Shown piece after piece: positions 6,000 through 42,721 of a stretch of DNA of 64,000 nucleotides. This DNA comes from an uncultured Heliobacteriaceae bacterium (GTDB taxonomy: Bacteria; Acidobacteriota; Blastocatellia; RBC074). The DNA is taken from NCBI GenBank assembly GCA_964563495.1, contig CAZLYK010000009.1, positions 45-64,044 of the forward strand. The letters are read 5' to 3'. How positions within the stretch are numbered: position 1 is the stretch's first letter; each line of letters begins with the position of its first letter. A program made the translations under genes and the position numbers. Under the pieces are notes generated by a model. It worked only from the letters and a program-made list of their open reading frames with translations. It was not told where the DNA came from and searched no databases.

Positions 6000-6066
6000 C
6001 CAGGATTGCATCTTTGTCTCTAATCCTGTTTAATCCTGCACAAATCCTGTTAATCCTGTCTATTTT
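6000..6066. repeat. family A element, truncated (core + right arm)
   Basis: caggattgcatctttgtctctaatcctgtttaatcctgcacaaatcctgttaatcctgtctatt. Confidence 0.8.
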
Positions 6067-6093
6067 CTTCTTTCTTCTTTTTGGGGATTGGTT

Positions 6094-8832
6094 ATGGCCA
6101 GAGTGATCAAAATTTTGTTCTGCCTTCTCGCCGGACCGGCTTGCCTGGTCGAAGGTTCACAGCCCAATCACTGGGCGTTCGTCGCGCCGGTCAGACCGGC
6201 GCTCCCTGAGGTCAAAAACAAGGCCTGGGTTCGCACGCCGATCGACCGTTTTATCCTCGCCGAGATCGAAAAGCAGGGATTGTCCCCGTCACCGCAGGCC
6301 GACAAGGAGACGCTCATTCGCCGGCTCAGTCTGGACCTGACGGGTTTGCCGCCGTCGATCGAGGAGATCGATCAATTTATCGCCGATAGCTCCCCGAACG
6401 GAGATGAAAAGCTGGTCGAGCGATTGCTCGGCAGCAGCCATTACGGCGAACGGTGGGGGCGTTGGTGGTTGGATGTCGCCCGTTACGCCGACACCAACGG
6501 CTTTGAAAAAGACCTCCCGCGCTCGATCTGGCCGTATCGCGACTGGGTAATCAATGCTTTCAACCGGGACATGCCATTCGATCAAATGACGATCGAACAA
6601 TTGGCGGGAGACCTGCTGCCGGGCGCTACGATCGACCAGCGCGTGGCGACGGGATTTCTGCGAAACTCCATGCTCAATCAGGAAGGAGGCGTCGACCCGG
6701 AGCAGTTTCGCGTCGAGGGGATCATCGATCGCGTCGACGCCGTAGGTAAGGCTTTCCTGGGCTTGACGATCAACTGTGCGCAATGCCACACCCACAAATT
6801 CGACCCGATCGCACACAGGGAGTACTACCAGTTTTACGCCTTTCTCAACAGCGACGATGAGCCCGAGATCGAGGTTCCCGGCGAAGCCGTCACCAAAAAG
6901 CGCCGGGAGATTCTCGCCGGGATCGCCCGTCTCGAAGACGACCTGATCGCCAAGACTCCCGGCCTTTCGAAACAAATGGCTGACTGGGAGGAGAAGGTCA
7001 AGCGGGACGCAGTCGAGTGGGTGCCGCTCGAAGACGCCGGCATCTTCGCTTCGTTCGGCGTCAAGTTCGATCGGCTGGAAGATGGTTCGTTTATCGCCAA
7101 GGGTGACAATTCGACGGCCAACAACTACATCGTCAGGGCGAAGACCAATCTGAGGCGGATAACCGGATTCCGGCTTGAGCTGCTGACCGATCCGAATTTG
7201 CCGCGCGGCGGCCCGGGACGGGCAAATGACGGCGGCTCATACGTCTCCGAATTCATCGTCGAAGCCGGCCCTGCAGACAAAGCCGAGCCGGAGGGAAAGG
7301 TGGCGCTCTCGCGGGCCACGGCAGATTTCTCGCACGCCGGTTATCCGGTCGGCAACCTGATCGACGGTGACCAGAAAACCCACTGGGGCATCGACGCCGG
7401 GCCCGGCCGGCGCAACCAGGATCGTCACGCGGTTCTGGTCGCCAAATCCCCGGTCGATTATGAGGGTGGAGCTCTGCTCAAATTTCAAGTCGTTCAAAAG
7501 TTCGACGAGTCGATCAATGTCATGGGCGGCAAGCCGAACATCGGCAGATTCCGCATTTCAGTCACGACGGCGGAAAACCCCGCCGTCGATGCGCTGCCGG
7601 CAAGGATCCGGGGCGTGCTGGCGATTCCGGCTGAACGGCGCACCGCCGAGCAGCAGCGCGAAATCTTCGGCTTTTATCGCACCACGGTCGCCGAATGGGC
7701 TGGGACGAACGCCCGGATCGATGAGCTCATGAAGGATTGGCCATACGGGCCGACCACGCTCGCCCTGGCGTCCAGGCAGACGCCGCGCCAGACGCGCCTC
7801 TTCAGACGCGGCGATTGGAAGCGTCCAGCCGATCCGGTTGAACCCGGGACCCCGGCGATTCTGCATCCGTTTCCGAAAGACGCTCCGCGCAACCGGTTGG
7901 GTTTGGCCGGATGGATCGTCGACAAGGCGAACCCGTTGACGCCGCGTGTGATCGTCAATCGCATCTGGCAGCAATATTTCGGTCAGGGTCTGGTCGCGAC
8001 GCCGGAGGATTTCGGCTCGCGTTGTGAAAGACCATCGCATCCCGAACTGCTCGATTGGCTGGCGCGCGAATTTGTCGAAAGCGGTTGGAGCATCAAGCAT
8101 ATTCATCGCCTGATCGTTAATTCGGCCGTCTATCGCCAGTCTTCGAAACTGACGCCCAGGCTGCAGGAAGCCGACCCGACCAACCGCTGGCTGGCGCGCG
8201 CGCCGCGTCTGCGTGTGGAAGCGGAAACGATACGCGATATCGCGCTCTCGGCGAGCGGCCTGCTCAGTCACAAGATCGGCGGCCCATCGGTCTACCCGCC
8301 GATCCCCGATGGCGTGCTCTCGCTCAGCTACGGCGCAGCCATGAAGTGGGAGACGAGCGCCGGCGAGGACCGTTACCGGCGCGGGATGTACACCTTCTGG
8401 AAACGCGCCATCCCCTATCCCGGTTTGCTGGTCTTTGATGCGCCGAACGCCGATTTCTCCTGCACCCGCCGGGTTAAATCCAACACGCCGCTCCAGGCGC
8501 TGACAACCCTCAATGATCAGGTCTTTATCGAAGCGGCGCAGGCGCTCGCCTGGCGCGCCTTCAAAACCGGGGGCGCCGGCGATCGCGAAAAGATCGTCTA
8601 TGCGTTCAGGCTCTGCACCGGCCGACGCCCGGATCAATTCGAGTTGAACAGATTGACCGATCTTTTGCACGATCAGCAGGTCTATTTTCGAGGGCGCACG
8701 GCGGCGGCGGTCTATGTCTCGTCGCCGGATCTCAATCAGCTGCCCGAGGATGTCGACCTCCACGAGCTTGCCCCGTGGACCATGGTTGCACGCGTCCTGC
8801 TCAATCTGGATGAGACAATCACAAAGGAGTAG
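6094..8832 (+). CDS. DUF1549/DUF1553 (PSCyt2/PSD1) domain protein
   Basis: 912 aa; signal peptide; [17 protein letters not shown] and [14 protein letters not shown] motifs typical of the family; ATG at 6094 (TTG at 6088 in the track). Confidence 0.8.
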
Positions 8833-8834
8833 CG

Positions 8835-10286
8835 ATGAATCACCGGGACGAAATCAATAGTGAATACCGCCGGCTGGTCACCCGCCGTCATTTCTTCAGG
8901 GAATGCGGGATCGGGCTGGGATCGATCGCCATGGCGTCGCTGCTCGGCGATAAAATCCTTGCCTCAACCCAGCAGGCCGCGATCAATAATCCGCTCGCAC
9001 CGAAGCCGCCTCATTTCGCGGCCAGGGCAAAGCGCGTGATCTATCTCTTCCAGGCGGGCGCGCCGTCGCAGTTGGATCTCTTCGATTACAAACCCGCGCT
9101 CGTCAAATACAACGGCCAGCCGGTTCCGCAGGAGATGGTCAAAGGGATCAACTATGCTTTTATCAAACCCGACGCCGGCCTCTACGCTTCCGAGTTCAAA
9201 TTCGCGAAACACGGCCAATCCGGCGCCGAAATGTCCGAGGCTTTGATTCATTTGCCGAAAGTCGCCGATCAGATCGCGATCATCCGCTCGATGATCAGCG
9301 AGGCGATCAATCACGCGCCGGGGCAGATCTTTATGAACACGGGATCGGTCCAGTTCGGCCGGCCGAGCATCGGCGCTTGGGTGACTTATGGGCTAGGCTG
9401 CGAAACGCAGGACCTGCCCGCTTTCGTCGTTCTTTCGTCGGCGGGCGGAACCAGCGGCGGCGCCGGCAACTGGGGCTGTGGTTTCCTGCCGACGATCTAC
9501 CAGGGCGTGCCGTTCCGCCGGACCGGCGATCCGATCCTTTCACTCTCGAACCCGCGCGGCATGACTCGCGAGATGCAGCGAAAAACGCTCGATGCCCTCA
9601 AGGATCTCAACGCTCATCACCTCGATCTCAGCGGCGATCCGGAGATTACTACGCGAATCAACTCCTTCGAGATGGCTTTTCGCATGCAGGAGAGCGCTCC
9701 CGAACTGATGGATCTCTCTAAAGAATCGAAAGCCACGCTCGAGATGTACGGGGCTGAGCCGGGCAGGAACTCATACGCCAACAACTGTCTGCTGGCGCGC
9801 CGGATGATCGAACGCGGCGTCCGCTTCGTCCAGCTCTTCCACGAGGCATGGGATCACCACAGCGAAGTCTACAAAGGCGTCAAATCGCAGTCCAAACAGA
9901 CCGACCAGGCGACGACTGGGCTGATTCTCGATCTCAAGCAGCGCGGACTGCTCGACGACACGATCGTCGTCTGGGGCGGTGAATTCGGCCGCACACCCAT
10001 GGTCGAGACCGACCCCGAAGCCAATCGGAGCAAAGGCCGCGATCACCACAACAAGGCCTTCTCGATGTGGGTCGCTGGCGGAGGCTTCAAACCCGGCGTG
10101 ACCGTCGGCGAAACCGATGAGCTGGGATTCAATGTAGTCAATGACCCGGTCCACGTCCACGACCTGCACGCGACGATTTTGCACCTCCTCGGGTTCGAAC
10201 ATACGAAGCTGACTTATCGTTACCAGGGCAGGGATTTTCGGCTGACCGACGTCGGCGGAATCGTGGTTGAAAAACTGTTGGTCTAA
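8835..10286 (+). CDS. DUF1501 domain protein (sulfatase-like fold), Tat signal
   Basis: 483 aa; twin-arginine [14 protein letters not shown]; usual partner of DUF1549/1553 proteins. Confidence 0.85.
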
Positions 10287-10366
10287 ATCAAACCGGACAA
10301 CGCCGGGACACTGGTTGCGTGAGCCCCGAAGACGAGATTGACGAAATTGTTTGAGGATTAAACAAG

Positions 10367-12274
10367 ATGAAATACCGATCTTGGCTGCTGATTTTTCTCA
10401 TCCTCGTGCCGGCCGCTGTCGCTCAATCTTTGTCGCCGCAAAGCAAGCCTAAACCGGCTGCGCCGGCGAAGAGCGATGAGGCCGCGGAAAAAGAGCAGAA
10501 AGAGGCGGAATTGACCGCCCTCGAGTTCCGGGCATTGAGTCTGATCGAGGAGGCCGGCCGCGACGCCGGTCGGCTTGAGAATCTGCGGGAGGGCGCCAGA
10601 TTGCAGGCTTTGGCGGCGGATCTGCTCTGGTCCCACCGGAGGGACAGGGCCCGGCAGCTTTTCGATGAGGCCTTTCAAACCGCCGAGCAGCACTACCGGA
10701 AAAGTCAGGACAATAATACGACCAGGATCTCAAACAGCGCCTGGGTCAGCCGCGACGATGTCCGCATGGAGATCGTTCGTCTGATCAATAAGCACGACCC
10801 GGCTCTGGGGCGGGAGTACACTGAAAAGTTTATCGAATCGAAGAAAAAACAGCGTGAGAGCGGCAATCAAGAGGGGGCGAAGCCGAACAGCCTCGACCAG
10901 ATGTTCGGCTCGAATTCGACCGCGGCGAGCGACCTTCTCCGGATCTCGGATTCTCTGCTCGAGGTCGACCCAAAGCTTGCCATCGAGCTCACCCAGCGAG
11001 CGATCGCGATGAGCGTCACGCCGTCCTTGAGCGGTTTTCTCAATCGGTTGTCGGAGCGTGATCGAGCCGCAGCCGATCGCCTCTTTTTCATGGCTCTCGA
11101 CCGGCTGCGCGCCGACCCGGCCCCTCTGGCCGGTGAGCTCCTCTCGCTGTCCGGCTATCCCTTCGGCGCTGAAGAGATCCGTTTTACCGATGGCGGCGGA
11201 AACACCTCGATGTGGGGGTTCGGCAAGCCGGAGAATTTCAAGGCCGATCCCAGACTGATCCAGAGGTTTCTCTTGAACGGCATGGAGATCCTCACCAAAG
11301 CCTCCGATCCGGCGGTTCTTCAGTTACCCGATGGTGTATCCAGGTTGGGAGCGGCGCTCTTCGCAGCCAGATCGATAGAGCCCAGAGTCGTCGAATATCA
11401 GCCCGCGCTGGCCGAGAAATGGCAGGGCCTGATCGCCAGGATCGCGGCGCTCACCTCGGACGGGCCGCGCCAAAGAATAGACCAGCAAATGCAGGAAGCG
11501 GCTAGCAGGAAAGCCGAGACGCAGAACCCACCTGCGAGCGGCAGCGACGCCCCGACCGTCCAGGCTTTGATCGATCGGGCCAAAGTGGCCGGCAACATCG
11601 TCGAAAAAGACGATCTCTATATGGAAGCCGCGCTCGCCGCCGAACGGACGGGCGATAGCTCATACGCACTGGAGGTCGCCGGCAACATCCTTGATCTGAC
11701 GCTCAGGCAAAAAGCCAAATCCTGGATCAGTTTTGGGGCTTCCACGAAGGCCGTTGGTGAAAAGAGGCTGGATGACGCCAAACGCTTCGCCCTCGATGTC
11801 GATGAGGCCGATCAACGGGCCTACCTCTTTCTGGAGATCGCCAAAGCCGCACTCGGCGATAAGGATCAAGCCCGCGCGCGCGAGCTCATGGAAGAAGCCC
11901 TGCAAAAAGCCAACCAGGTGGAAGACTCGCCCGGCAAGCTGCGCTCCTTGCTCGGCCTCATCAGTCTGTACTCCCAGGTCGATTACAATCGCGCATTCGA
12001 GATTGCCGAGCACGCGGTTCGAACCGCCAATCGTATCCCATCCGACCAGCTCGGAACGGGAATCGACGCCGCCCGGCTGGTCAGAAAGCTCGAAACCAAC
12101 AGAAACAGCATGGCCATGACCACCTCCGTCACCGGGTTCAATCCCGATCACGTCTTCGCGGCTTTGGCGAAGTTCGATTTTCAGAGAGCCCTGACCATCG
12201 TCGAGGGGTTTGAAAGCCTGCCGGTCAAACTCTCGACCACTCTGGCCGTAGCCGGAACGGCGCTCAGGAAATAA
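10367..12274 (+). CDS. hypothetical secreted Ala-rich protein
   Basis: 635 aa ORF with N-terminal signal peptide; no recognisable domain. Confidence 0.55.
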
Positions 12275-12287
12275 CCCTCGGTCGATC

Positions 12288-13031
12288 ATGTCTTCTATGC
12301 CGGATGAGCTCGTCCGCCTTTCCAAACTCATGTCTGAACGGGGCATCTGCTCGCGCCGTGAAGCGGATGCCCTGATCAGCCAGGGGCTGGTGCGGGTCGA
12401 TGGTGCGATCGTTAATCAGCTCGGCGTCAAGGTCTCGCCACAGGCGAAGATCGAGCTCGATCCCAAGGCTCTCAGCCATCAACAATCATGGGTCACCATT
12501 ATTCTCAACAAGCCCGTCGGTTACGTCTCGGCCCAGCCCGAACCGGGTTACACTCCGGCGATCAAGCTCATCACGCCGGCGAATATGTTCGGTAAATCCG
12601 AGCTCAAATTGCGGCCCGAACATTTGAAAGGTTTGGCTGTCGCCGGTCGATTGGATATCGATTCGCAGGGACTGTTACTGCTGACACAGGACGGCCGGAT
12701 GGCCAAGAAGATCATCGGTGAAAAGAGCGGGATCGAAAAAGAGTACATCGTCCGCGTCGCCGGCTCGCTTTCGGAGGAGAACCTCGGGCTTTTGCGTGAC
12801 GGCCTCTCGCTCGACGGCAAGCGGCTTCTGCCCGCACGGGTCGAGTGGATCAATCGCGACCAGTTGAGGTTCGTCCTCAAAGAAGGGAAAAAACGCCAGA
12901 TCCGCCGTGTCTGTGAGATGGTCGGTTTGAAAGTCATCGGTCTCAAGCGGGTGAGGATCGGTAAGATCGCACTCGGCAATTTGCCGGAAGGGAAATGGCG
13001 ATTCCTGCGACCTGACGAATCAATCGATTAA
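12288..13031 (+). CDS. pseudouridine synthase, RsuA/RluB family (S4 + catalytic domain)
   Basis: S4-like N-terminus; [17 protein letters not shown] catalytic-Asp motif. Confidence 0.8.
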
Positions 13032-13033
13032 TT

Positions 13034-13135
13034 AATAGACAGGATTGACAAGATTCCTGCAGGATTAAACCGGATTTAAGACAACCGAAAAAATCCGGTT
13101 TAATCCTGCAGGAATCTTGTCAATCCTGTCTATTT
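13034..13135. repeat. family A element, copy 4 (near-perfect palindrome)
   Basis: aatagacaggattgacaagattcctgcaggattaaaccggatttaagacaaccgaaaaaatccggtttaatcctgcaggaatcttgtcaatcctgtctattt. Confidence 0.9.
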
Positions 13136-15439: not shown

Positions 15440-15468
15440 AATAGATGGGATTGTCAATCCTGTCTATT
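15440..15468. repeat. family A minimal copy (outer arms only)
   Basis: aatagatgggattgtcaatcctgtctatt. Confidence 0.7.
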
Positions 15469-16441
15469 ATTTATACCCATGAGGATGGTTCAGATGCCAG
15501 CGCCAGGCGGACTCGATAATCCGATCGAGCTCGCTCTGACGCGGCTGCCAACCCAGGTCGCGCATGATCTTATCGGGGCTGGCGATCAGCACCGGAGGAT
15601 CGCCCGGGCGGCGCGGAGCCGCCTCGGTCGAAATCCATCTGCCCGTGACTTGCCTCGCCATTTCGACCACTTCGGCTACCGAATAACCGCTCCCGTAACC
15701 CAGATTATAGACATCGCTGCGTTTTTCCGTCACGCCCAGGGCGAGGATGTGCGCGGCTGCCAGATCGACGACGTGAATGTAATCGCGCACGCACGTTCCG
15801 TCGGGCGTGTCGTAGTCTTCGCCGTAGACGTCCACGTGGCCGGCTTTGCCGGCCGCGACTCGCAGCACGTTCGGTATCAGATGGGTCTCGGGTTGGTGGT
15901 CTTCGCCGAAACGATCGCTTGCGCCGGCTGCATTGAAATATCGCAGGCTGACATAATTGAGCTGGTGGGCTTCCTCGTACCAGCGCAGCAATCGCTCGAA
16001 GGCGAGCTTCGATTCGCCGTATGGATTGGCCGGAACCGCAGCCGTCTCTTCGTTGATCGGCATCGTCGGCGGCGCTCCATAGACCGCCGCTGTTGAAGAG
16101 AAGACCAGCCGTTTGACACCGGCCGCCAGCATGGCATCGAGCAGCGCGATTCCCCCTCCGACATTGTTGGTGAAATATAGATGAGGCTGAACCACCGATT
16201 CGGCGGCCAGGCTCGATCCGGCCATGTGGATCACCGCTTCGATCCCATGCCGGTCGAGCGTCTCGACCAGTCTCCGGCGATCCGAAAGCTCGCCCTCGAC
16301 CAGAATCGCCTCGGGCGAAACGGCCGCCGCGTGCCCTTTGCTCAAATTATCCAGGACAATCGGGTTGTGACCCTGAGCAATCAAATACTCGACGATCACG
16401 CTGCCGATGTACCCGGCTCCGCCCGTGACAAGAACCTTCAT
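15467..16441 (-). CDS. galE: UDP-glucose 4-epimerase
   Basis: [14 protein letters not shown] Rossmann motif; YxxxK SDR catalytic motif; 324 aa. Confidence 0.85.
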   Translation of the reverse strand: MKVLVTGGAGYIGSVIVEYLIAQGHNPIVLDNLSKGHAAAVSPEAILVEGELSDRRRLVETLDRHGIEAVIHMAGSSLAAESVVQPHLYFTNNVGGGIALLDAMLAAGVKRLVFSSTAAVYGAPPTMPINEETAAVPANPYGESKLAFERLLRWYEEAHQLNYVSLRYFNAAGASDRFGEDHQPETHLIPNVLRVAAGKAGHVDVYGEDYDTPDGTCVRDYIHVVDLAAAHILALGVTEKRSDVYNLGYGSGYSVAEVVEMARQVTGRWISTEAAPRRPGDPPVLIASPDKIMRDLGWQPRQSELDRIIESAWRWHLNHPHGYK

Positions 16442-16461
16442 GAATAAATTGGCCTCCTAAA

Positions 16462-16547
16462 AATAGACAGGATTGACGGGTTTTTTGCTCGATTAAACAG
16501 GATGACCTCCTGTTTAATCATGCAAAAATCCCGTCAATCCTGTCTAT
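16462..16547. repeat. family A element, copy 6
   Basis: aatagacaggattgacggg...cccgtcaatcctgtctatt with compensatory arm changes. Confidence 0.9.
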
Positions 16548-16563
16548 TAATAGCCGGATTATT

Positions 16564-17511
16564 TTAACTGCCGGGGCAGGGAACGGTCTTTCCATCCGGG
16601 CCGCGACAAAGTTTACCGGGTATCAGGACGCCGAAGCACTTGCCGTCGACCAAAATGCCACCCTTGGGACAGTCACCGGTCGCGCCCGGAGGACTGCTGG
16701 CGGCGCTGAAGATGACCATGTTCGGAGCGATAAAGCCTCCGGCCATGACCGTTACGCCGGGGAAGAAGAGCGAGTGGTCGTAATATTCAATGCCGTAATA
16801 ACTGCGAAACATCCTGTCGCTCTTACGGCTGACCACGCCGACGATCGGCCCCTTACCCGGTTCGCTCTCGTCGAGCGATAATCCCGAATCATTGGCGCCG
16901 GCATTGCCGTCCAACTGGGTATCGGCCGGCTGGCCGGGCAGCCGTGTCGTCCCCATCTGGGCGAGCACAACCAGATTGGCCGGGGGCGGCGGCAGCGCGA
17001 TATTCCCCTTTTGCTGCGTCGCCAGATAAGCATCGTAGAGTTCCTTGACGAGCGGGTCACCCGGGCGAACCAGACGCCAGTTGGACATGCCGGGCGTGCA
17101 GGGCGTCATCGGATCGCACAACGCCGATGGGCGAAGCAGTCTGATCTTCTTGCCTCCCACATCTATGCCCTCTATCAACTGAGTCAGATCGGTCGGAAAC
17201 TGCTGGCCGCCCCGCATCGCCGCGTAGCGCCCCAAAGCCGCCGAGATCTGCTGCCCGCGCCAGAGCATCTCCTCTTCGCGCTCGCGCTGCGTCTCCATTT
17301 TGACCATCGGCGCTGTCGCCGTCATCAAAATCAGCGAAAACATCATGACACCAATCAAACCCACCAGCGCGTAACCGCGCTCGCCGCGTTTCACCTTGCG
17401 GCGCTGAGCAGTGTCTCCCGCCCGCTGATTGATCAAATTCTCTTTCATCTTCCTCATACCTCTGAACTCTCGCTCTCTCAACCGTTCAGCCCGGGGCTCA
17501 GCCATTCTCAC
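16564..17511 (-). CDS. hypothetical membrane protein, possibly pseudopilin-like
   Basis: N-terminal hydrophobic helix [17 protein letters not shown] resembles a non-canonical prepilin segment (no Glu at +5); start uncertain. Confidence 0.4.
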
Positions 17512-19773: not shown

Positions 19774-20085
19774 TCAACTTTATCTGATTGCCATTCTTGA
19801 TCGTTCTTCAGCGGATCTGAGGATTGGGGCGCAGAGCAACGCCAACTATAGCATAAAGATCAGATTGGCTAACAGCAGAGATCAGGGGCGGGAAGTGTGA
19901 TTCGTCTATTATTACAAAAAAATCGAGGTGACCTTCCCCCGCTCCAGCGTGGCTGATCACCTCACACAAACTACACACAGCCGCTATCACGCTTCTATAG
20001 GGAAAAGGTTCCCGGATTTTTCTCTAAATAATCAATTTTTCTGACTTTTGCCCCACTTCCGGCTTCATTCTAATGAATAGCCAGG

Positions 20086-20163
20086 ATAAACAAGACTTTT
20101 GCAGGATTTTACCAGGCCAGCTCTGGTAAAATCCTGCAAAAGTCTTGTTTATCCTGGCTATAT
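20086..20163. repeat. family A diverged variant
   Basis: aatagccaggataaacaagactttt...aaaagtcttgtttatcctggctat; arms diverged but still complementary. Confidence 0.75.
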
Positions 20164-20251: not shown

Positions 20252-22051
20252 ATGAAACATCCGGGAAGATCAATGACCGAATCGACGACCAAAATCGTGC
20301 GCGGAATCTCGGGCGCCCGCTGGCGGTTGAACCAATGCGACGAAGAGTTGGTGGACGGTTTGCGCCGGTCCACGGGTGAGGACGAGATTCTGATCCGCTG
20401 TCTGGTCAATCGCGGCCTCTCGAATGCGGAAGAGATCAAGAATTTCCTGGAGCCGCAGTTCTTCAGCCAGCTTCACCCGCCCATGCTGCTGCGGGATATG
20501 GCGGAAGCCGTCGGGCGGTTGCGACGCGCCGTCCGCGATCGGGAGCGCATTCTGATCGTCACCGACTTCGACGTAGACGGGACTACCTCGAGCATCATTC
20601 TATCGCAGACATTAAAGCTGCTGGGCGGGGCAGACCTCGTCTCCTGCTACATCCCGGACCGCTTCAGCGAGGGCTACGGTCTTTCCCGGCAGATCGTCGA
20701 GCAGGCCGCCGCCGGCGGCTTTCGCATCATCCTGACGGCCGACATAGGGATCAAATCACACGCCGAGTCGCGGCTGGCGCGCGAGCTCGGCATCGACCTG
20801 ATCATCTGTGATCACCACCTGCCCGATGGGGAAGACGTCCCGGCCGATGCCTTCGCCGTACTTTGCCCCAAGGGATCTTCGGGAACCGGCTATCCGAACA
20901 AGCACCTGGCTGCCTGTGGAGTCTCGCTCAAACTGGCTGATGCGCTGCTCGAAGGACACTCAAAGAGGGAAGCGATTTTAGCCTCGCTCGCCAAACTCAC
21001 CGCCATCGGGACGATCGCCGACATGGTCGATCTTTCGGCCGGGGAAAACCGCGCCATCGTCGCTCACGGTCTGAAAGCTCTCTGCCGGCCGAGCAACAAC
21101 CCGGGTTTGCGCGCACTGCTCAGACTGGCTCAGGTTGGCGACCCAATCACCTCTTACGATATCGGCTTCAAAATCGGCCCGCGGATCAACGCCGCCGGGC
21201 GGATCGCGCACGCCAACTCGGTCCTCGCCCTGTTCGAGGCTAAAACGGATGATGAAGCGACCGAACTGGCACTCAAACTCGACGCCCTCAATTCCGAACG
21301 CCAGCATATCCAGCACATTCTGGTTGAAAAGTTGAAGAAGCTCGTCTTTGAGGGGAATGATCGATTTCCACACGTTCTGGTCTTTGCCGGCAGCGAGCAG
21401 GAGGATTTTCATCGCGGCGTGATCGGTATCGCCTGCTCCAAAATGGTCGAGATGACCGGGCGGCCGACCTTTATCTGCTCGGTCAATGAAGATGGCATTG
21501 CTCACGGCAGCGCCCGCTCGATCGGCGGATTCCATCTGGTTGAGGCTCTCGATTCGGTCTCGGATCTGCTCGTCAAATATGGAGGTCATCCCATGGCCGC
21601 AGGCTTCACGGTTCCCTCTGAAAAGATCGACGAGCTTCGCCGGCGACTCAATCATTACGCCGAGAAGATCCTGAGCGATCAGGATCTGGGGCGAATCCTG
21701 ATCGCCGACGCGGAAATTCGAGTCGAAAGCGCGACCGTCGAGACTACCCGATCCCTGGCCAGACTGGAACCACACGGAGTCGGCAACCCCACTCCGCTCT
21801 TCCTGCTGCGCGGCGCTCCCCTGCGCTCGATCCAGGTGCTCAAGGAGAAGCACCTCAAATTGCTCATCGGCCCGGAAAGGATGCCGCTCGAAGCTCTCTG
21901 GTGGAATGCAGCCGACCACCGATCGAAGCTCGAAGGGGCGTCTTCGATCAGTCTGATCTGCCGGCTCGAGATCAATCGCTGGAACGGCCGCGAAACCTGC
22001 CAGCTCAAGATCATCGATGCCAAGATTGAGGAAAAGAATAGACAGGATTGA
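20252..22051 (+). CDS. recJ: single-stranded-DNA-specific exonuclease RecJ (DHH/DHHA1)
   Basis: [21 protein letters not shown] motif; 599 aa; C-terminal NRQD* supplied by the repeat. Confidence 0.9.
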
Positions 22052-22134
22052 CAGGATTTCTGCAGGATTGAACAAGATTTATATCTTGTTCAATCCTGCA
22101 GAAATCCTGTCAATCCTGTCTATTCTTTTCCTGG
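22037..22134. repeat. family A element, copy 8 (perfect palindrome, extended by gaaaag/cttttc)
   Basis: aatagacaggattgacaggatttctgcaggattgaacaagatttatatcttgttcaatcctgcagaaatcctgtcaatcctgtctatt. Confidence 0.95.
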
Positions 22135-22175
22135 TTGACAAAGGGAAGCTGTGGCCGTTAAGATGCGCATTCGTA

Positions 22176-22912: not shown

Positions 22913-23890
22913 ATGGCAAATTCACAGCAACCGACCTTGTTTAATCATAAACTCATAGTCATCGCAAAGGCCTTGAATGTTCGCCAATCACCATCACCGC
23001 AAGGTGAAATCGTTGGTTTACTTGGAAAAGATGAGGTCGTCGATTGGCTCGACACATCGGAAGATGGCCAGTGGTACAAGGTTCAGAAAGGCAATCTCGT
23101 CGGATGGTCATTTAGAAAATTTCTCACCACTGTCACGCCATCAGAACTAGACAAAATTACTCAGGTTGCCGCGGCCTCGGAGGTTGCGCGCTATCGATGG
23201 CTCGACCGGGGAGTAGCGCCGCTCGGATACATTAAGGGAATGGCCGTTGCTTACGCGAGGGTCTATTGCAAGCTGTTAGCCGGAGATGCTGCTGCCATAG
23301 AGATGGCAAAAGCAAAGACGACAGTAACCGGCAAAGATGCCCTGGCGCATTATCATCAAATCTTTCAAGATGCCGGAATGGACAACAGCCGTGCCGGGGA
23401 CGACACGCTTCGACATTTATTTGTACTCCTGATCGGACTTGGGATGCGTGAAAGTTCCGGGCGTTATTGTGAGGGACGTGATAGATCGGCGAGTAATACC
23501 ACAGCGGAAACAGCCGAAGCCGGGCTTTTCCAGACCAGTTACAATGCCAGAACCGCGAGCCCATTGCTGCCGGTATTATTTCATCAGTATTCGGCTAATC
23601 CGGCAGGGTTTGTCGATATCTTCAAACAAGGCGTCAGGTGCACCGATGCAAGCCTTGAAAACTATGGAGATGGTGACGGGAGGGAGTTTCAGCGTTTATC
23701 AAAGGCTTGCCCGGCATTTGCAGTCGAATTCGCCGCGGTGGGGCTGAGAAACATTCGGAAACACTGGGGGCCGATAAACCGCAAAGAAGCAGAGGTCCTG
23801 CCTGAGGCCGATGAGATGTTAATGCAGGTACAAAATATTGTAGATAAGTTTAATCTCTGTCCAGCGCTCAAAGGAAATAGCCAGGATTGA
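22913..23890 (+). CDS. SH3b domain protein with C-terminal lytic-transglycosylase-like region
   Basis: N-terminal bacterial SH3 pattern (ALNVRQSPS...GWSFRKFL); C-terminal GMRESSG...AEAGLFQ resembles the SLT catalytic ES...AxGLMQ motif; gene looks AT-richer than its surroundings. Confidence 0.55.
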   Translation: MANSQQPTLFNHKLIVIAKALNVRQSPSPQGEIVGLLGKDEVVDWLDTSEDGQWYKVQKGNLVGWSFRKFLTTVTPSELDKITQVAAASEVARYRWLDRGVAPLGYIKGMAVAYARVYCKLLAGDAAAIEMAKAKTTVTGKDALAHYHQIFQDAGMDNSRAGDDTLRHLFVLLIGLGMRESSGRYCEGRDRSASNTTAETAEAGLFQTSYNARTASPLLPVLFHQYSANPAGFVDIFKQGVRCTDASLENYGDGDGREFQRLSKACPAFAVEFAAVGLRNIRKHWGPINRKEAEVLPEADEMLMQVQNIVDKFNLCPALKGNSQD

Positions 23891-24166
23891 CAGGATTTCA
23901 ACAGGATTATAGCAAGTTTCACGTTTGTGCGACCGCGTCCTCGCGGTCGCACAAACGTGAAACTTGCTGCCACAGTGTAAGCATTGATTGATGACCAATG
24001 CTATCAGCGCGGTTTTCAGTTTCGTGCGTCCTGTCAGACGCCCTCCCTGACGGTCGGTCTTCTGACAGGACGCACGAAACTGAAAACCGCTGTAAACCGG
24101 ATCAAAGACAGGGCAAAACAACATCCGGTTTAATCCTGTTGAAATCCTGTCAATCCTGTCTATTTC
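23876..24166. repeat. composite: family A element split by a nested ~186 bp hairpin-rich element (family B, 23909..24094)
   Basis: left A arm 23876-23908, right half (aaaccggatcaaagacagggc...aatcctgtcaatcctgtctatt) 24095-24166; insert holds a 26-bp perfect stem hairpin (23912-23967), a 6-bp hairpin (23980-24000) and a ~32-bp stem hairpin (24006-24092). Confidence 0.85.
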
Positions 24167-24206
24167 CTTCTTTGATCTGCTCATTCGTCTGACTGATTCA
24201 GTTTTG

Positions 24207-27223: not shown

Positions 27224-27919
27224 ATGTCAAAACGTAGCGATCTTCAAATTTCCTCCGATGTCCAGAAGCCGAAGGAACCATTGGATCCCAAAGAGCCAAA
27301 AGATCCCAAAGACCCTAAGCCTAAGCCAATCGTGCCGCGTCCGGTAACCATCAGCGCCTTGACCATGGACTGCGATGATGAGAACGATCCGTTAAGCAGT
27401 GACGAACCCTATTTATTGGTCTTCAGCCTCAATCTTGTAGGGCTGCCAAAGCCAAGAGTGATCAAACTGGGCCCTTTCAACGTCAGTGCTTCCGATACTA
27501 CGTTTGTCTTCCCTCCGAATATTCTTTGGGGGGTGGATGGTCAACCAACAATCATCAATCACCCCGACGATTTGCTCCTGCTGGTAGCTTTGATGGAGAA
27601 TGACACATCTGATCCCGAAGCAGTCCGGTCATTCGTCGAAGGTTTTATGGTGGCAAGCTCAGTTGAGCACGCAACGAGCGCAGGAAATCACAATGACTTC
27701 GCGAGCCGAATGATAAACGCTATGCAGGGCTTCATCAGTGCCCCGGCATTGGCCACCGGCCCGATTGATCCCGATGACCAGATCGGCCCGGTGCAGGAAC
27801 TGCGCATCAATCAAGATGACCTAAATCTGGTTTATAGCGATAAACTCAACTCGAGCGATAAAGCCATGGTTTTCGCGGGAGACGGAGCCAGATACTTTGT
27901 TCGCTTCCGTATCCATTGA
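27224..27919 (+). CDS. hypothetical protein with a K/P/E/D-rich N-terminal repeat
   Basis: 231 aa ORF with good SD (aagagagg); PKEPLDPKEPKDPKDPKPKP low-complexity N-terminus; AT-rich upstream leader; no known domain. Confidence 0.5.
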   Translation: MSKRSDLQISSDVQKPKEPLDPKEPKDPKDPKPKPIVPRPVTISALTMDCDDENDPLSSDEPYLLVFSLNLVGLPKPRVIKLGPFNVSASDTTFVFPPNILWGVDGQPTIINHPDDLLLLVALMENDTSDPEAVRSFVEGFMVASSVEHATSAGNHNDFASRMINAMQGFISAPALATGPIDPDDQIGPVQELRINQDDLNLVYSDKLNSSDKAMVFAGDGARYFVRFRIH

Positions 27920-27928
27920 ATGAGGAGG

Positions 27929-28033
27929 AATAGACAGGATTGACAGGACTTCTGCAGGATTAAACAGGATATTGTTTGGCCCTGTCTTTGATCCTGTTTA
28001 ATCCTGCAGAAATCCTGTCAATCCTGACTATTT
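27929..28033. repeat. family A element, copy 10
   Basis: full palindrome with core ttgtttggccctgtctttgatc. Confidence 0.9.
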
Positions 28034-28037
28034 CTTC

Positions 28038-29210
28038 TCAAGGCCGGTTGCGACCGTAGCGATCGTGGCTCGACACCCACTCTTCGGCGATGACCGCGCT
28101 GCCGAGCGATAACTCGCCGCAGAGCACCGTCGCAGCGACGATTTCGGCGAACTTCCTGACTCCGTCCTTGCCGTAACAACCGAGCAGTTCCAGGCACTCA
28201 CGTTGCGTCGGCAGTCCGGTGCCTCCGCCGTAGGTCGCCACGATCAACGAAGGGATCGTGATCGAGTAATAGTAATCGCCCGCCGGCGTGATTTCGGAAT
28301 AGACCAGCGCCGCCGAAGATTCAGCGACGTTAGCCACGTCCTGCCCCGTCGCGATGAAGAGTGCCGCGATGCCGTTTGGCGAGTGCCCGCCGTTGTTGTT
28401 GGCGCCGGAAAAGAGGCTCCCCAGATTGCTGATCAGCCGCCCGCGAAAGATGCGTTCGACGCTGGTGCGCATGACGCTTTCCAGCAGTCGCGCAGGGATC
28501 GTCGCTTCCGCCGTCACGCGCTTGCCGCGCGTGCGCAGCACGTTGATCTGCGAGGATTTCTTGTCGGTCGCGAAGTTCGATTCGAGAAGGTAATGCTCGA
28601 TGCCCGGATAAACGCTGCAAATCCAATCGCAGGCGGCTTTGGTCGCCTTGCCGACCATGTTCTGGCCGGCGGCGTCACCCGTCAAGAAATTGAAACGGAG
28701 GAAGCGGAAGCGGCTGGCCGAATATTGCTCAATGTCGCGCAGTTTGCCGACGCGCGTGGTGGTCTCGGCCTGGCGTTTGATCTCGTTGAAGTTTTCTTCG
28801 ACCCACTTGCCGAACTGGCGAGCCTCGCGTGCGCTGGGAAAGATAAAGACCGGCGCGCGCTGCATGGCATCGTCCAGGACGGTGGTGGTCACACCGCCCG
28901 CCTCGCGCAGCAGCTTCATCCCACGATTATAGCTGGCGACAAGCGTGCCCTCGGTCGTCGCCAGCGGCACAAAGAATTCGCCCTTCGCATATTCCCCGTT
29001 GACCATTAGCGGCCCGGCCAGGCCGATCGGCACCTGCGCTACGCCGATGAAATGCTCGATGTTGCCCGGCAGCGCCGCTGACGGATCGAAGGAGTATTGG
29101 CCGACGTGGTTGAGCTCGACCCCGGTCTGCTCTTTCAGGAACCGCCGTCGAGCCTCAGCCGCTTCGCGGGTGTAATCGTTGTCCGGGGAACGCGGAATTT
29201 TGTTGGACAT
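28038..29210 (-). CDS. hydroxymethylglutaryl-CoA reductase, class I
   Basis: ATTEGTLVAS, DAAGQNMV and ATYGGGTG motifs match class I HMGR signatures. Confidence 0.85.
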   Translation of the reverse strand: MSNKIPRSPDNDYTREAAEARRRFLKEQTGVELNHVGQYSFDPSAALPGNIEHFIGVAQVPIGLAGPLMVNGEYAKGEFFVPLATTEGTLVASYNRGMKLLREAGGVTTTVLDDAMQRAPVFIFPSAREARQFGKWVEENFNEIKRQAETTTRVGKLRDIEQYSASRFRFLRFNFLTGDAAGQNMVGKATKAACDWICSVYPGIEHYLLESNFATDKKSSQINVLRTRGKRVTAEATIPARLLESVMRTSVERIFRGRLISNLGSLFSGANNNGGHSPNGIAALFIATGQDVANVAESSAALVYSEITPAGDYYYSITIPSLIVATYGGGTGLPTQRECLELLGCYGKDGVRKFAEIVAATVLCGELSLGSAVIAEEWVSSHDRYGRNRP

Positions 29211-30559: not shown

Positions 30560-30572
30560 GAGCGGGTTTTAA

Positions 30573-30676
30573 AATAGACAGGATCGACAGGATTTTTACT
30601 GGATTAAACAAGATATTTTCTGCTTTGGATTCAATCATGTTTAATCCAGTAAAAATCCTGTCGATCCTGTCTATTT
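30573..30676. repeat. family A element, copy 11
   Basis: aatagacaggatcgacaggatttttactggattaaacaagat...atgtttaatccagtaaaaatcctgtcgatcctgtctattt (compensatory changes). Confidence 0.9.
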
Positions 30677-30817
30677 TCTGCTTTGCTCAAATAACTCTCT
30701 AACATACAATGACTCGATCACATTCAGCGGGTTACCTTCACAAAAAAACGACCATTTTTCGGGCAATTGGGAGCATTTGCTGCCAAAGGACAATGGCATA
30801 GAAAAGGATCAACGCCC

Positions 30818-32239
30818 ATGAAAAGAGTTTCTTTCGCCTTTTTCCTCAGCGCTTTGTTGCTCGGCGGACCGGTTCTGTTGTTTCTGACCACGGTGCTGCC
30901 GTTGACTGCCGGTGCGCAACGCGCGACCGCAGAGAGGCCGAACATTCTTGTCATCGTGGCGGATGATCTGGGTTATGCCGACATAGGCGTGCAGGGCTGT
31001 CAGGACGTCCCGACGCCCTACATCGATTCTCTGGCGAGAAATGGTCTGCGCTTTACAAACGGCTATGTCTCGGGGCCGTACTGCAGTCCTACGCGCGCCG
31101 GTCTGCTGACCGGGCGCTATCAGCAACGCTATGGCCACGAATTCAACCCCGGCCCGGCGGGCAATGCTGATCCGGAGTTCGGGTTGCCTCTCACGGAAAC
31201 GACGCTGCCGGCTCGGTTGAAAGCGCTGGGATACACGACAGGAATGGTCGGCAAATGGCATCTGGGTTTTGAGCCAAAATTTCATCCGATGAAGCGAGGC
31301 TTTGATGAGTATTTCGGTTTTCTAGGGGGGGCTCACAGCTATTTGGAAAACAGCGAGGGGCGCAATATGGTCATGCGCGGCAACCGGATGGTGACAGAGT
31401 TTGGTTATCTGACCGATATGTTCGGCGACGAAGCCGCGGCTTTTATCGAACGACAAAAGGAGAAACCCTGGTTTTTGTACCTGGCCTTCAATGCCGATCA
31501 CACGCCGATGCAGGCGACCGAGAAATACCTGGCGCGTTTCCCAAACATCAAGGATCCGCTCCGGCAAAAGTTTGCGGCGATGCACAGCGCCATGGATGAC
31601 AACATCGGTAAGGTGCTCTCCGCGCTCGGCAAGCACAGGCTCGAAGAACGCACGCTGATCGTTTTCCTCAGCGACAACGGCGGCCCGACCAGAGCCAACA
31701 GTTCACGCAACACACCGCTGCGGGGCTTCAAGGCGCAGACGTGGGAAGGCGGCGTTCGCGTCCCCTTTTTGCTCCAATGGAAAGGCAAACTGCCCGCCGG
31801 CGTGGTCTATCAAGAGCCGGTCATTCAGCTCGACATTCTCCCAACGGCGCTGGCTGCCGCCGGCGTCGAGGCGAAAGGCGATTGGAAACTCGATGGAGTC
31901 AACCTGACGCCCTATCTGACCGGCCAAAAGAAAGGGGCGCCGCACGAGGCGCTGATGTGGCGTTTCGGCGGGCAGATGGCGATTCGGATGGGCGAGTGGA
32001 AGCTGGTCAAAGCGCCCGGAGCCGGGGCTGCATTTGCTGAGCGCCGTCAACGCACGACGGTCAGCGGCGCGCATCTATACAACCTTCGCGACGATGTCGG
32101 CGAACAGGTCAACCTGGCGGACAAAGAGCCGGAGAAGGTCAAACAACTCGCCGCTTTCTGGGAAAAGTGGAACGCCGAATTGGAGGAGCCGCGCTGGGAG
32201 CCGAACCGCAATCCCAACCGGCAAAATAGAGAGGATTGA
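30818..32239 (+). CDS. sulfatase (formylglycine-dependent arylsulfatase family)
   Basis: CSPTRAGLLTGRY C-x-P-x-R motif; signal peptide; C-terminal NRED* from a half repeat. Confidence 0.85.
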   Translation: MKRVSFAFFLSALLLGGPVLLFLTTVLPLTAGAQRATAERPNILVIVADDLGYADIGVQGCQDVPTPYIDSLARNGLRFTNGYVSGPYCSPTRAGLLTGRYQQRYGHEFNPGPAGNADPEFGLPLTETTLPARLKALGYTTGMVGKWHLGFEPKFHPMKRGFDEYFGFLGGAHSYLENSEGRNMVMRGNRMVTEFGYLTDMFGDEAAAFIERQKEKPWFLYLAFNADHTPMQATEKYLARFPNIKDPLRQKFAAMHSAMDDNIGKVLSALGKHRLEERTLIVFLSDNGGPTRANSSRNTPLRGFKAQTWEGGVRVPFLLQWKGKLPAGVVYQEPVIQLDILPTALAAAGVEAKGDWKLDGVNLTPYLTGQKKGAPHEALMWRFGGQMAIRMGEWKLVKAPGAGAAFAERRQRTTVSGAHLYNLRDDVGEQVNLADKEPEKVKQLAAFWEKWNAELEEPRWEPNRNPNRQNRED

Positions 32240-32258
32240 CGGGACTTTTGCAGGATCT
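32225..32258. repeat. family A half element (left arm)
   Basis: aatagagaggattgacgggacttttgcaggatct; supplies the sulfatase stop and lies just upstream of the FGE start. Confidence 0.7.
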
Positions 32259-32264
32259 GAAAGG

Positions 32265-33323
32265 ATGAGCCTGAGACAATCAATCTTATTGCTGTGGTTG
32301 CTACTGTTGTTTCTCGCGGGTTGCAGAACCCAGTCGCCGGACTCTGCGATTGCGCCTCCTCAAACTGAATTCACTGCCGTAGCGAGCGTCAACAAACGGC
32401 CGCCGCCCGGTCCCGCCCCTGCCGGGATGGTCTGGATTCCCGGCGGCACGTTTTGGATGGGTTGCGCGGATTGCAATATGCCCGACGCCTTGCCGGTGCA
32501 CGCAGTCACAGTGGACGGATTCTGGATCGATCAAACGCCGGTCACAAACGCTCAGTTCGAGCAGTTCGTACGGGCGACCGGTTACCGAACTATTGCCGAG
32601 CGTAACCCCGATCCGAAAGATTATCCCGGCGCTGATCCGAACATGCTCGTACCCGGCTCGGCTTGTTTTACCGCGCCGCCGACGGACGTCCCGCTCGATA
32701 ATTTCCTGCAATGGTGGCGGTACGTGCCCGGCGCCAACTGGCGGCATCCTGAAGGGGCGAACTCAACTATCCAGGGACGCGAAAATTATCCGGTCGTGCA
32801 TATTGCCTGGGATGACGCGGCAGCCTACGCGAAATGGGCGGGCAAACGGCTGCCGACCGAAGCCGAATATGAATTTGCCGCGCGGGGCGGGCTTGATCGC
32901 CATCGCTACGCCTGGGGTAATGAGTTGAAGCCCGGAGGCAAATGGCCGGCGAACATCTGGCAGGGAAAGTTTCCCTCAAAGAACACCGGTGAGGATGGCT
33001 ACTCCGGCATATCTCCGGTGAAGGCGTTTCCGCCGAACGGATTTGGACTCTACGACGTGGGCGGCAACGTCTGGCAATGGTGCGCTGATTGGTATCGGCC
33101 CGATTATTATCAAACGCTGGCCGCAGGCGGATCGCGTAACCCCCAGGGGCCTGCCGACAGTTTCGACCCGCAGGAACCGGGAATTCCGAAGCGCGTCCAG
33201 AAGGGCGGTTCGTTCCTCTGCAGCGATCAGTATTGCGTGCGCTATCTGGTTGGCAGCCGCGGCAAGGGCGCGACCGACAGCGGCAGCTCAAACGTCGGTT
33301 TCCGCTGCGCGAGCGGGGGGTGA
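32265..33323 (+). CDS. formylglycine-generating enzyme family protein (lipoprotein)
   Basis: LLLLFLAGC lipobox; WIPGGTFWMGC, RLPTEAEYEFAARGG and GNVWQWCADWY FGE motifs; start trimmed from the track ORF (upstream part is out-of-frame overlap and repeat). Confidence 0.85.
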   Translation: MSLRQSILLLWLLLLFLAGCRTQSPDSAIAPPQTEFTAVASVNKRPPPGPAPAGMVWIPGGTFWMGCADCNMPDALPVHAVTVDGFWIDQTPVTNAQFEQFVRATGYRTIAERNPDPKDYPGADPNMLVPGSACFTAPPTDVPLDNFLQWWRYVPGANWRHPEGANSTIQGRENYPVVHIAWDDAAAYAKWAGKRLPTEAEYEFAARGGLDRHRYAWGNELKPGGKWPANIWQGKFPSKNTGEDGYSGISPVKAFPPNGFGLYDVGGNVWQWCADWYRPDYYQTLAAGGSRNPQGPADSFDPQEPGIPKRVQKGGSFLCSDQYCVRYLVGSRGKGATDSGSSNVGFRCASGG

Positions 33324-34412: not shown

Positions 34413-34435
34413 ATCAAAGGAAGAAAATAGACAGG

Positions 34436-34531
34436 ATTGACAGGATTTTCACAGGATTAAACAGGATTTTGTTCTGCCTTGGCTTTGATCCTGTTTAATC
34501 CTGTGAAAATCCTGTCAATCCTGTCTATTTT
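34436..34531. repeat. family A element, copy 13
   Basis: perfect arms; core ttgttctgccttggctttgatc. Confidence 0.95.
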
Positions 34532-34550
34532 CTTCCACGAATGAAGACGA

Positions 34551-35993: not shown

Positions 35994-36082
35994 CAGGATT
36001 TTCACAGGATTAAACCGGATTTCTTTCTGCCTTGTCTTTGATCCGGTTTAATCCTGTGAAAATCCTGTCAATCCTGTCTATT
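35979..36082. repeat. family A element, copy 14
   Basis: arms with aaaccggat/atccggttt variant; core ttctttctgccttgtctttgatc. Confidence 0.95.
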
Positions 36083-42689: not shown

Positions 42690-42721
42690 CTTCTCATTCA
42701 ACTGAAAGAGGAGATTTCGCC

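Follow-up and report, generated by a model that had tools for sequence, protein, structure and literature searches.

The 64-kb window analysed here, the whole 64,000-nt stretch taken from contig CAZLYK010000009.1 of an uncultured Blastocatellia bacterium (Acidobacteriota), carries many intergenic copies of a palindrome whose two arms are phased arrays of a CAGGATT-containing repeat. The focal copy lies at 22029-22132, where an inverted-repeat scan found a perfect palindrome of two 50-nt arms, 100% complementary and 4 nt apart. A first-pass annotation had reported a palindromic CAGGATT element at 22037-22134; this is the same object, and it is real. Our favoured explanation is that the window copies are the gene-less form of a selfish repeat linked to a small nuclease of the GxxExxY family. 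We hold this tentatively, as a reading with a good chance of being right though somewhat short of probable.

Arm architecture and distribution

The consensus arm, ATAGACAGGATTGACAGGATTTTTGCAGGATTAAACAGGAT, matches the one given in the first-pass annotation. It is a head-to-tail array of three to four 8-nt nACAGGATT units whose starts lie 9, 11 and 10 bp apart, roughly one helical turn. An outer cap, ATAGAC, is found in 25 of 26 arms and a purine-rich tail (GGAAGAAA) lies outside most arms. Since this tail is common to most arms, the extension of the palindrome into its flanks, as described earlier, is present but seems to belong mostly to the element and not to the host. Between the two facing arrays lies a centre of 4-20 nt (consensus (A)AAGACAAGGCAGAA, present in both orientations), giving a full element of ~100-118 bp. 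An earlier estimate of ~20 nt for the centre holds for most copies but not for those at 22029, 16446 and 53632, where it is 4-7 nt. Repeats can be lost arm by arm (4+2, 2+4, 4+3) and the element ends are ragged. As previously claimed, there are no target-site duplications: across 14 copies no direct flank repeat exceeded chance at offsets 0-14 and lengths 2-9. Counting both strands, the window has 85 CAGGATT heptads; dinucleotide-preserving shuffles gave 9.3 +/- 3.3 (maximum 20).

The two arms of a copy are far closer to one another than to the arms of other copies, with a mismatch of 1.7 of 41 positions within a copy versus 6.3 between copies. Departures from the consensus were identical in both arms in 26 cases versus 15 confined to one arm (partner permutation 0/10000), confirming the compensatory arm changes noted at first pass. 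Among ten aligned copies, pair-preserving double changes were found at 13 of the 41 stem pairs, and only ~5 cells were G-U. Such paired changes are what strict DNA-level symmetry would produce; selection acting on an RNA helix alone would less typically leave this pattern. A single consensus arm folded to 0 kcal/mol, no better than shuffles, and the whole element gave a predicted RNA fold of -88 kcal/mol (z = -16.7) and a DNA fold of -59.9 kcal/mol. The ~50-bp stem is bounded by A and T tracts and is far longer than that of a canonical terminator, the U-tract itself being paired. The variant copy (20096-20142) was the only one picked up by a simple terminator scan. In the predicted RNA fold no CAGGAU unit is left unpaired.

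Arms of this design are widespread. The pattern ATAGACAGGATTNACAGGATT, with 20 specified bases, was scanned against one genome per species (596 Gb), for which about one chance match is expected by calculation. It matched at least 107 stretches, labelled by record title as about a dozen phyla. Among the matches listed were Acidobacteriota; Chloroflexota (Anaerolineae, Dehalococcoidia and Chloroflexia); Verrucomicrobiota, Kiritimatiellae and Planctomycetota; Bacteroidota; Heliobacteria; Armatimonadota, Desulfobacterota and Auribacterota; Beta- and Gammaproteobacteria, including the isolate Thiobaca trueperi DSM 13587; and the archaeon Candidatus Methanoperedens. Nearly all listed matches formed the outer part of a palindrome, with 2-7 nACAGGATT units, a lineage-specific centre and inverted units, and the units faced each other (>>> <<<) throughout. 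The window copies match the arms of these loci (L001-L107) and of three further loci (L195, L197 and L199) in having facing nACAGGATT arrays, a 9-11 bp spacing and an (A)TAGAC or GGAC cap. Flanking genes, centres and base composition vary between matched loci; right ends elsewhere read GTCCAT, GTCAAT or GTCTAA, and a flanking TA is not conserved. One match in 2.9 million viral contigs and one weak match among plasmids give no evidence of a phage or plasmid vehicle.

The unit itself was found expanded at three loci. In a Lewinellaceae bin, L035 1-852 consists of 17 tandem copies of a 49-bp unit holding two ACAGGATT units each; at a contig end, L053 5266-5389 runs to at least 13 tandem 9-mers, and L024 6320-6400 has seven tandem 9-mers in one arm.

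A GxxExxY gene beside the arrays

Genes recurring near the arms were sought by all-against-all clustering of open reading frames (ORFs) at the 107 arm-bearing loci (~0.8 Mb). The recurrent neighbours were generic housekeeping families (ABC transporter, SDR, TctC, NifU, NusB and others), and no Y1 or other transposase family recurred at these loci. The sole gene found between or against arms, at L020, L067, L081 and L103, encodes a ~130-aa (125-140 aa) protein of the GxxExxY family that matches TIGR04256 (E 1e-41) and PF13366 (PDDEXK_3). At L081 the gene is a pseudogene within the arms, and at L106 a 200-bp palindrome keeps the gene's last ~25 codons (E 9e-7). One complete Acidobacteriota chromosome (OY969111) holds the gene-less L001, L014 and L063 together with the gene-bearing L195. 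In the Blastocatellia cassette L199, TAA is directly followed by TGGACAGGATTTACATGATTTTCAGGATGGGG, then by the ORF from its ATG and finally by CCTGAAAATCCTGTCAATCCTGTCCA; the first 24 nt of its right arm differ from the window consensus at a single base. An Anaerolineaceae locus (L197) has the same arms together with a gene of the family at 69% identity. The window copies are best read as the gene-less form of this nuclease-linked palindrome.

Sampling the gene independently of the arms, at 80 metagenome loci, gave a similar association. Nearly every sampled gene had arrays of 8-9-nt units within tens of bases of both ends. The units are lineage-specific: ACAGGATT, CATGGATAGACAGGATA, CGCAGATT, CACAGAG, CACGAA(A/G), CACGAATT, CAGGAAA, CCGAGAA, GCCAAGA and GGGAGAT. 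At L084, for example, the gene is flanked by another array, three CACGAAGGn units and their inverse. In an inverted-flank test 17 of 37 genes scored, versus none of 67 equal-length segments shifted within the same loci. Of 67 upstream gene ends 18 had an exact phased array next to them, as had 14 of 67 downstream ends; the density of such arrays in the rest of the loci was 0.05 per kb. When loci were assigned to motif classes by class patterns (at least eight classes), the class was the same in the nearest protein relative at 53 of 61 classifiable loci (permutation 0/2000). Every one of the 13 metagenome genes sharing 61% identity or more with the L067 protein had ACAGGATT-type arrays.

The protein is predicted to adopt a minimal PD-(D/E)XK nuclease fold whose E-D-ExK site is intact, as judged from a confident AlphaFold model (predicted local distance difference test score 88). 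The GxxExxY glutamate E27, together with D66, E76 and K78, was invariant in fifty close homologues, which is the E...D...ExK pattern of PD-(D/E)XK nucleases. A sequence search with the GxxExxY profile returned no relative of solved structure, and PADLOC defence models gave only weak similarity to Cas4 and hence no evidence of a known defence gene. The family is large. More than 8,000 candidates were found at E <= 1e-5, the best 120 of which were all 66-97% identical and came from Blastocatellia, Anaerolineae and other bins; a 50%-identity representative library held 17,431 proteins at E <= 1e-3 and 5,125 at E <= 1e-10. Some relatives are ~260-aa tandem two-domain fusions (P0148-P0153, P0222-P0224), which hint that the single-domain protein may work as a dimer.

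A base-precise empty site for the L199 cassette was not obtained: in the nearest relatives its slot holds a TonB_C gene or an unrelated 140-aa ORF (L201 and L202 have other ORFs in the slot, and L203 is too short). Near this cassette lies another small gene, of family PF05635 (23S_rRNA_IVP, a four-helix bundle), with a phased array of five GAGATTG(G/A)A units running up to its ATG. It is present at L199 11990-12563 and L202 4565-5183 and cleanly absent at L201 4563-4566, which provides a clean empty site for this gene. This second small-gene family may share the array habit.

Copies in the window and at orthologous gaps

The window is ordinary chromosomal DNA of 52-62% G+C carrying housekeeping genes (ProRS, RNase R, RecJ, CoaD, RsmD, HMG-CoA reductase, GalT/GalK and others). 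An Rfam scan of it returned two tRNAs and nothing else, and the copies are not in rRNA. A census that combined the inverted-repeat scan, a fuzzy arm search, direct reading and a direct-repeat scan counted ~23 loci, made up of 14 two-arm copies, five half or truncated copies (6001, 32226, 39910, 45707 and 59396) and four remnants (1-24, 10325, 15451 and 47933). This is close to the ~21 full or partial copies first reported. A short-read contig of the same organism (Logan SRR14932634_113837) spans window positions 6044-13063 and breaks within the copies at 6001-6063 and 13034-13134 (derived coordinates). Ending within two copies is expected of a high-copy repeat, and these breaks are indirect evidence of high copy number genome-wide.

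All 19 mapped copies lie in gaps between genes, and it is partly shown that copies are tolerated only there. The claim that nearly every intergenic gap is occupied was overstated: copies sit at 19 of 52 gene junctions and in 18 of the 30 gaps of at least 35 bp. By gap type they occupy four of seven convergent, 12 of 38 tandem and three of seven divergent gaps, and the tandem gaps hold copies in both orientations. Often the element makes up the entire gap.

The two-arm copies, to which no strand was assigned, vary in detail around the focal design. The copy at 2569-2652, in a convergent gap, has four repeats in its left arm and two in its right, whilst that at 42600-42694 has two and four and that at 37443-37534 is one repeat short in its right arm. 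The centre is longer (~55 nt) at 3665-3789, which lies between a pair of minus-strand genes, and short at 16446-16564 and 53632-53752; the last of these lies in a divergent gap, and its palindrome reaches ~18-25 nt past ATAGAC. Arms are 100% complementary at 13034-13134, which fills a convergent gap, and in the divergent variant copy at 20077-20161 (ATAGCCAGGATAAACAAGAC...), itself in a divergent gap. The copy at 27921-28040 is the whole convergent gap between the gene at 27224-27919 and that for HMG-CoA reductase. That at 30571-30677 carries the paired variants GATCGAC and ACTGGATT, and that at 34419-34536 has perfect 49-nt arms including the purine-rich tail and an RNA fold of -88 kcal/mol. 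At 35979-36082 the next gene's Shine-Dalgarno (SD) sequence directly follows the right arm. The copy at 23877-24163 has ~200 bp in its centre with two hairpins of another repeat family (23911-23968 and 24009-24090).

The incomplete copies retain recognisable pieces of this design. At 6001-6063 (divergent gap, no strand assigned) the right arm is complete and the left is reduced to one repeat, and a degenerate copy at 59396-59471, likewise unstranded, lies between two RimK-like paralogues. On the plus strand are a left arm only (32226-32266), a left arm and centre whose right arm is lost (39910-39980), a half copy (45707-45747) that is the entire 35-bp spacer, a degenerate left arm (10325-10370) and an arm remnant with a second-family hairpin (47933-47996). 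Right-arm ends on the minus strand are found at 15451-15474, where 24 nt lie in and fill a 37-bp gap, and at 1-24, cut by the window edge.

The second hairpin family is represented by GCAAGTTTCACGTTTGTGCGACCGCG... and GCGGTTTTCAGTTTCGTGCGTCC..., with CACGAAAC/CGTGAAAC-like units, at 23911-23968, 24009-24090 and 47957-47974. It thus occurs within the centre of the copy at 23877-24163 and again beside the arm remnant at 47933-47996, which is 88% identical to 23892-23955. A 121-aa ORF at 23819-24184, running across a copy, has no family match and is probably spurious. Between two PQQ-repeat genes lies a 305-aa ORF (41638-42555) with no Pfam match, which is not in the syntenic block of relatives L191 and L194; the copy at 42600 directly follows it. 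A near-consensus promoter-like site for tRNA-Pro (22135-22164; TTGACA, 18 nt, TAAGAT) begins 3 nt past the right end of the focal copy.

Many copies rewrite the ends of the genes beside them. Five plus-strand genes stop at a TGA or TAA made by GGATT(G/A)AC of an arm: ProRS (TAA, 2582-2584), RecJ (TGA, 22049-22051, in the left arm of the focal copy), the gene stopping at 23888-23890, GalK (TGA, 35991-35993, in the left arm) and the gene upstream of the degenerate copy (TGA, 59410-59412). A minus-strand aminotransferase gene stops at the TAG of ATAGAC (13130-13132). The sequence of these junctions indicates that insertions replaced the last codons and the stop codon in at least six genes. Within the first 15 nt of the arm, two of the three reading frames meet a stop codon.

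Gene starts are affected too, with three to four half copies providing both a host ATG and an upstream AGGA. In the half copies at 32226, 45707 and 10325 the innermost repeat (...A(A/C)(A/G)G) plus G gives the host ATG, with AGGA of the previous repeat ~10 nt upstream. The genes concerned are an FGE-sulfatase gene (ATG at 32265), the AP_endonuc_2 gene, whose half copy also supplies the TAG stop of the preceding lipase, and the gene at 10367, preceded by ...AAACAAG. The same geometry, ACAGG directly before ATG, also begins the GxxExxY ORF in L103, L126 and L133. The arms may thus double as translation-initiation regions. A transcript running through a copy would form a perfect hairpin of ~50 bp, with an A-tract on one side and a U-tract on the other, and would probably be stopped or cut in either direction. 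A promoter role for TTGACA/TTTACA in the arms was rejected, there being no -10 partner and no promoter found in arms by a promoter scan. Likeness to a DnaA box, PhoB box or integration host factor (IHF) site failed on spacing or bases, by sequence inspection only.

A 13-kb block is syntenic between the window and three related Acidobacteria bins, whose genes in it are 71-82% identical to the window's at the nucleotide level. The ACAGGATT elements are absent from their syntenic gaps, which hold palindromes of the same design built from other units, or none. In the gap between the GD_AH and PQQ genes, where the window has the copy at 39910, the relatives have a ~200-bp palindrome of ACGAAAC(A) units. 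Between the lipase and AP_endonuc_2 genes, in place of the half copy at 45707, they have ACGCATGG/GTTCCGCC palindromes, and a fourth relative has one of GCCAAG(G/A). The gap before the second PQQ gene, with the full copy at 42600 in the window, is a plain GC hairpin in relatives such as L191. Palindromes of other units (ACGAAAC, ACGCATGG, AGAATGA and GCCAAGG) were located at L191 5110-5265, 9848-9983 and 13551-13702 and at L190 180-390. A 541-bp gap after AP_endonuc_2 in L191 was considered and is not an array palindrome. The CACGAAA and GCCAAG motif types also flank GxxExxY genes. The first-pass annotation had proposed comparing orthologous loci, reasoning that absence from all close relatives together with lack of structural conservation would count against a real family; the close relatives do lack the element there, yet the structure is clearly conserved. 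The sister palindromes point to turnover, not to the absence of a real family.

Proposed mechanism, alternatives and known systems

The strongest argument that the nuclease recognises the arrays is one of parsimony, in that a ~460-bp cassette moving between phyla with its arms conserved codes for only one protein able to co-vary with them. Because this is the only protein travelling with the arms that could co-vary with them, we infer that the nuclease would bind or cut the arrays, which would be its own recognition sites. The nuclease would break DNA at the arrays and repair would copy from another copy, by homing-like gene conversion or ectopic recombination, so spreading and homogenising gene-bearing and gene-less copies alike. 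Such copying repair would also keep the two arms of a copy near identical. Gene-less copies would arise through gene loss and could serve as further substrates or landing pads.

Several points weigh against this explanation. No GxxExxY gene was found in the 64-kb window by tblastn and profile search in six frames. PF13366 is listed as a family of unknown function (PMC3424549). Many of the source genomes are metagenome bins, and the phylum labels may include binning errors. Homing alone would leave the arrival of a copy in a new, repeat-free gap unexplained. Ordinary genes are also flanked by copies in a saturated genome, as GalK is by those at 34419 and 35979, so flanking alone is weak evidence and the argument rests on the controls and on the decay series. 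Finally, the arrangement of gene and arms varies between >>> ORF <<<, >>> centre <<< ORF <<<, <<< ORF >>> between two palindromes and >>> ORF >> centre <<<; what stays constant is the contact of the gene with arrays, not a place inside a stem. This variety fits recombination or homing into arrays better than it fits a fixed-end transposon, and is open to the view that the gene is a mere lodger.

The variable arrangement is the main weakness of our favoured explanation, as it fits equally a nuclease gene that homes into an independently spreading palindrome. The palindromes would then spread by some other cause, GxxExxY would be a free-standing homing-type nuclease gene using arrays as safe landing sites, and the window copies would owe the nuclease nothing. 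We consider this unlikely but a serious competitor. The gene can lie in the centre, within an arm array or between two palindromes, only ~4 of ~120 sampled ACAGGATT palindromes carry it, and a phased array also precedes a PF05635 gene whose presence varies between relatives. What a lodger would not lead one to expect is that the motif class tracks the nuclease phylogeny over at least eight classes, that arms and gene occur together in distant phyla, or that gene remnants lie within otherwise ordinary palindromes; nor does any other candidate mobilising gene recur near the arms at the 107 loci. Selection by the host on an element without mobility of its own is a more doubtful proposal. The copies would be bidirectional terminators, RNase III sites, mRNA stabilisers or arrays for a host protein, with CsrA-like CAGGAU in RNA or -35-like TTGACA/TTTACA. 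A perfect 50-bp hairpin between A and U tracts, the occupancy of four of seven convergent gaps, the many copies that begin at stop codons and the resemblance of CAGGAUU to CAGGAUG, the repeat of CsrB, all fit this. Copies in promoter-containing divergent gaps (three of seven) and in both orientations in tandem gaps do not, the GGA motifs are buried in the stem, and the arms have no -10 partner. Identity over 20 nt across phyla would be unexpected for independently selected terminators, and with different motifs in the same gaps of relatives and a motif class that tracks the nuclease, a single host factor does not fit. Acting secondarily as a terminator is nevertheless likely for the element and forms part of our favoured explanation.

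The first-pass annotation had called the element REPIN/MITE-like. The likeness of form stands, the copies being high-copy, strictly intergenic and palindromic, but the filing with repetitive extragenic palindromes (REPs), their paired form (REPINs) and REP-associated tyrosine transposases (RAYTs) is not supported. A classical miniature inverted-repeat transposable element (MITE) would be a deletion derivative of an insertion sequence (IS), moved in trans by a DDE or other known transposase with the ACAGGATT units as its subterminal binding sites. The ends of Tn7, Mu and IS21 carry multiple subterminal binding sites, so that arrays alone are compatible with such an origin, as are the long terminal inverted repeats, small size, lack of coding capacity, high copy number and intergenic position. 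Multiple subterminal sites are also described for IS607 ends (PMC6188088). Target-site duplications are absent at every offset tested, the ends are ragged, repeat numbers differ between arms, and no transposase lies between or near the 107 arms (~0.8 Mb) or in the window; we regard a MITE origin as improbable. A TA target duplication of the IS630 type was considered specifically and rejected, given that right ends in other genomes do not keep the TA and that the search for duplications was negative. Mobilisation as a REPIN by a RAYT (an IS200-like Y1 transposase) encoded elsewhere in the genome appears very improbable. High-copy extragenic palindromes without target duplications, in which a copy's arms co-vary, are indeed REPIN-like. 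However, a single arm has no hairpin, the arms are direct arrays, and the outer end is ATAGAC in 25 of 26 arms rather than a GTAG or CGTC tag. REPIN-RAYT pairs are lineage-specific and vertically inherited, in contrast to the near-identical arm cores of about a dozen phyla, and no Y1 transposase family recurs near the arms at the 107 loci. Within the 64-kb window itself we found no transposase, RAYT or GxxExxY gene, as the first-pass annotation had stated for the first two.

The nuclease-linked explanation may extend beyond this repeat. ACAGGATT and its sister array palindromes (CACAGAG, CGCAGAT, CACGAA(A/G), CAGGAAA, GCCAAG, ACGAAAC and others) could be the partners or substrates, themselves lacking a gene, of a class of selfish element not yet recognised, with a ~125-aa GxxExxY/PF13366 nuclease as its sole gene, lineage-specific arrayed sites and spread by breaking and copying. 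This broader proposal is possible, and we hold it with more doubt than the one for the window copies. If it is true, PF13366/GxxExxY, with 17,431 clusters at 50% identity, would gain a function in sequence-specific action on arrays beside its own gene, and the origin of much of the palindromic DNA between genes in Acidobacteriota, Chloroflexota, Proteobacteria and other phyla would be accounted for. It would also establish a type of dispersed prokaryotic repeat partnered by neither transposase nor RAYT, with cross-phylum transfer and rapid turnover at fixed intergenic slots. For annotation and assembly, such elements rewrite gene ends (stop codons, SD plus ATG) and break short-read assemblies, and they probably terminate or process transcripts in most gaps of the genome.

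A dispersed intergenic palindromic repeat is a known category. Literature searches for the arm sequence, GxxExxY, PF13366/TIGR04256, intervening sequences, palindromic elements and MITEs, and PDDEXK returned no description of this one, most subscription journals lying outside the search. The arm architecture, its conservation across phyla, the sister motif families and the link to PF13366 were unmatched in the literature searched, and a prior description is possible.

Among known systems, the element is similar in outline to REP/REPIN-RAYT of Pseudomonas and E. coli: high-copy extragenic palindromes with complementary arms and no target-site duplication, and a mobilising gene far lower in copy number than the repeats. 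REP units, however, are 20-40 nt hairpins, two of which in inverted order make a REPIN, whereas the arm here is an unstructured direct array of 8-nt sites. REP units also carry a conserved GTAG or CGTC tag at one end (PMC3733652). The partner also differs, being a PD-(D/E)XK nuclease and not a Y1 HUH transposase, and the arm core is common to many phyla. Bacterial MITEs such as Correia/NEMIS of Neisseria, ERIC/IRU and RUP resemble it in length (100-150 bp), long inverted arms, intergenic position and long co-transcribed hairpins, and their insertions likewise alter gene ends and supply expression signals. MITEs of the Correia type have target duplications (TA in Correia) or descend from known IS families. 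The present element lacks such a duplication and has ragged ends and arms made up of phased repeats, and no internal gene other than a nuclease was found in it.

The ORF-bearing intervening sequences of 23S rRNA (PF05635) offer a further likeness, with a long stem of inverted ends, an optional small ORF in the loop and patchy horizontal spread, and next to the L199 cassette the PF05635 gene likewise has its phased array and varies in presence from one relative to another. Unlike them, the window copies lie outside rRNA and the ORF family is PF13366, not PF05635; we know of no description of arrayed 8-9 nt sites for intervening sequences. The ends of Tn7 (TnsB sites), Mu, IS21 and IS607 similarly have inverted clusters of three to four direct binding sites at the two ends. 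Their sites are ~19-22 bp and bind an internally encoded DDE or serine transposase, in contrast to the 8-9 bp units with a 9-11 bp period found here with no such enzyme. Free-standing homing endonuclease genes, including the PD-(D/E)XK enzyme I-Ssp6803I, share the single small nuclease gene, the lack of any other mobility gene, the horizontal distribution and the break-and-repair spread that we propose. Known homing endonucleases target one unique conserved site per genome, whereas the predicted target here is a multi-copy arrayed repeat.

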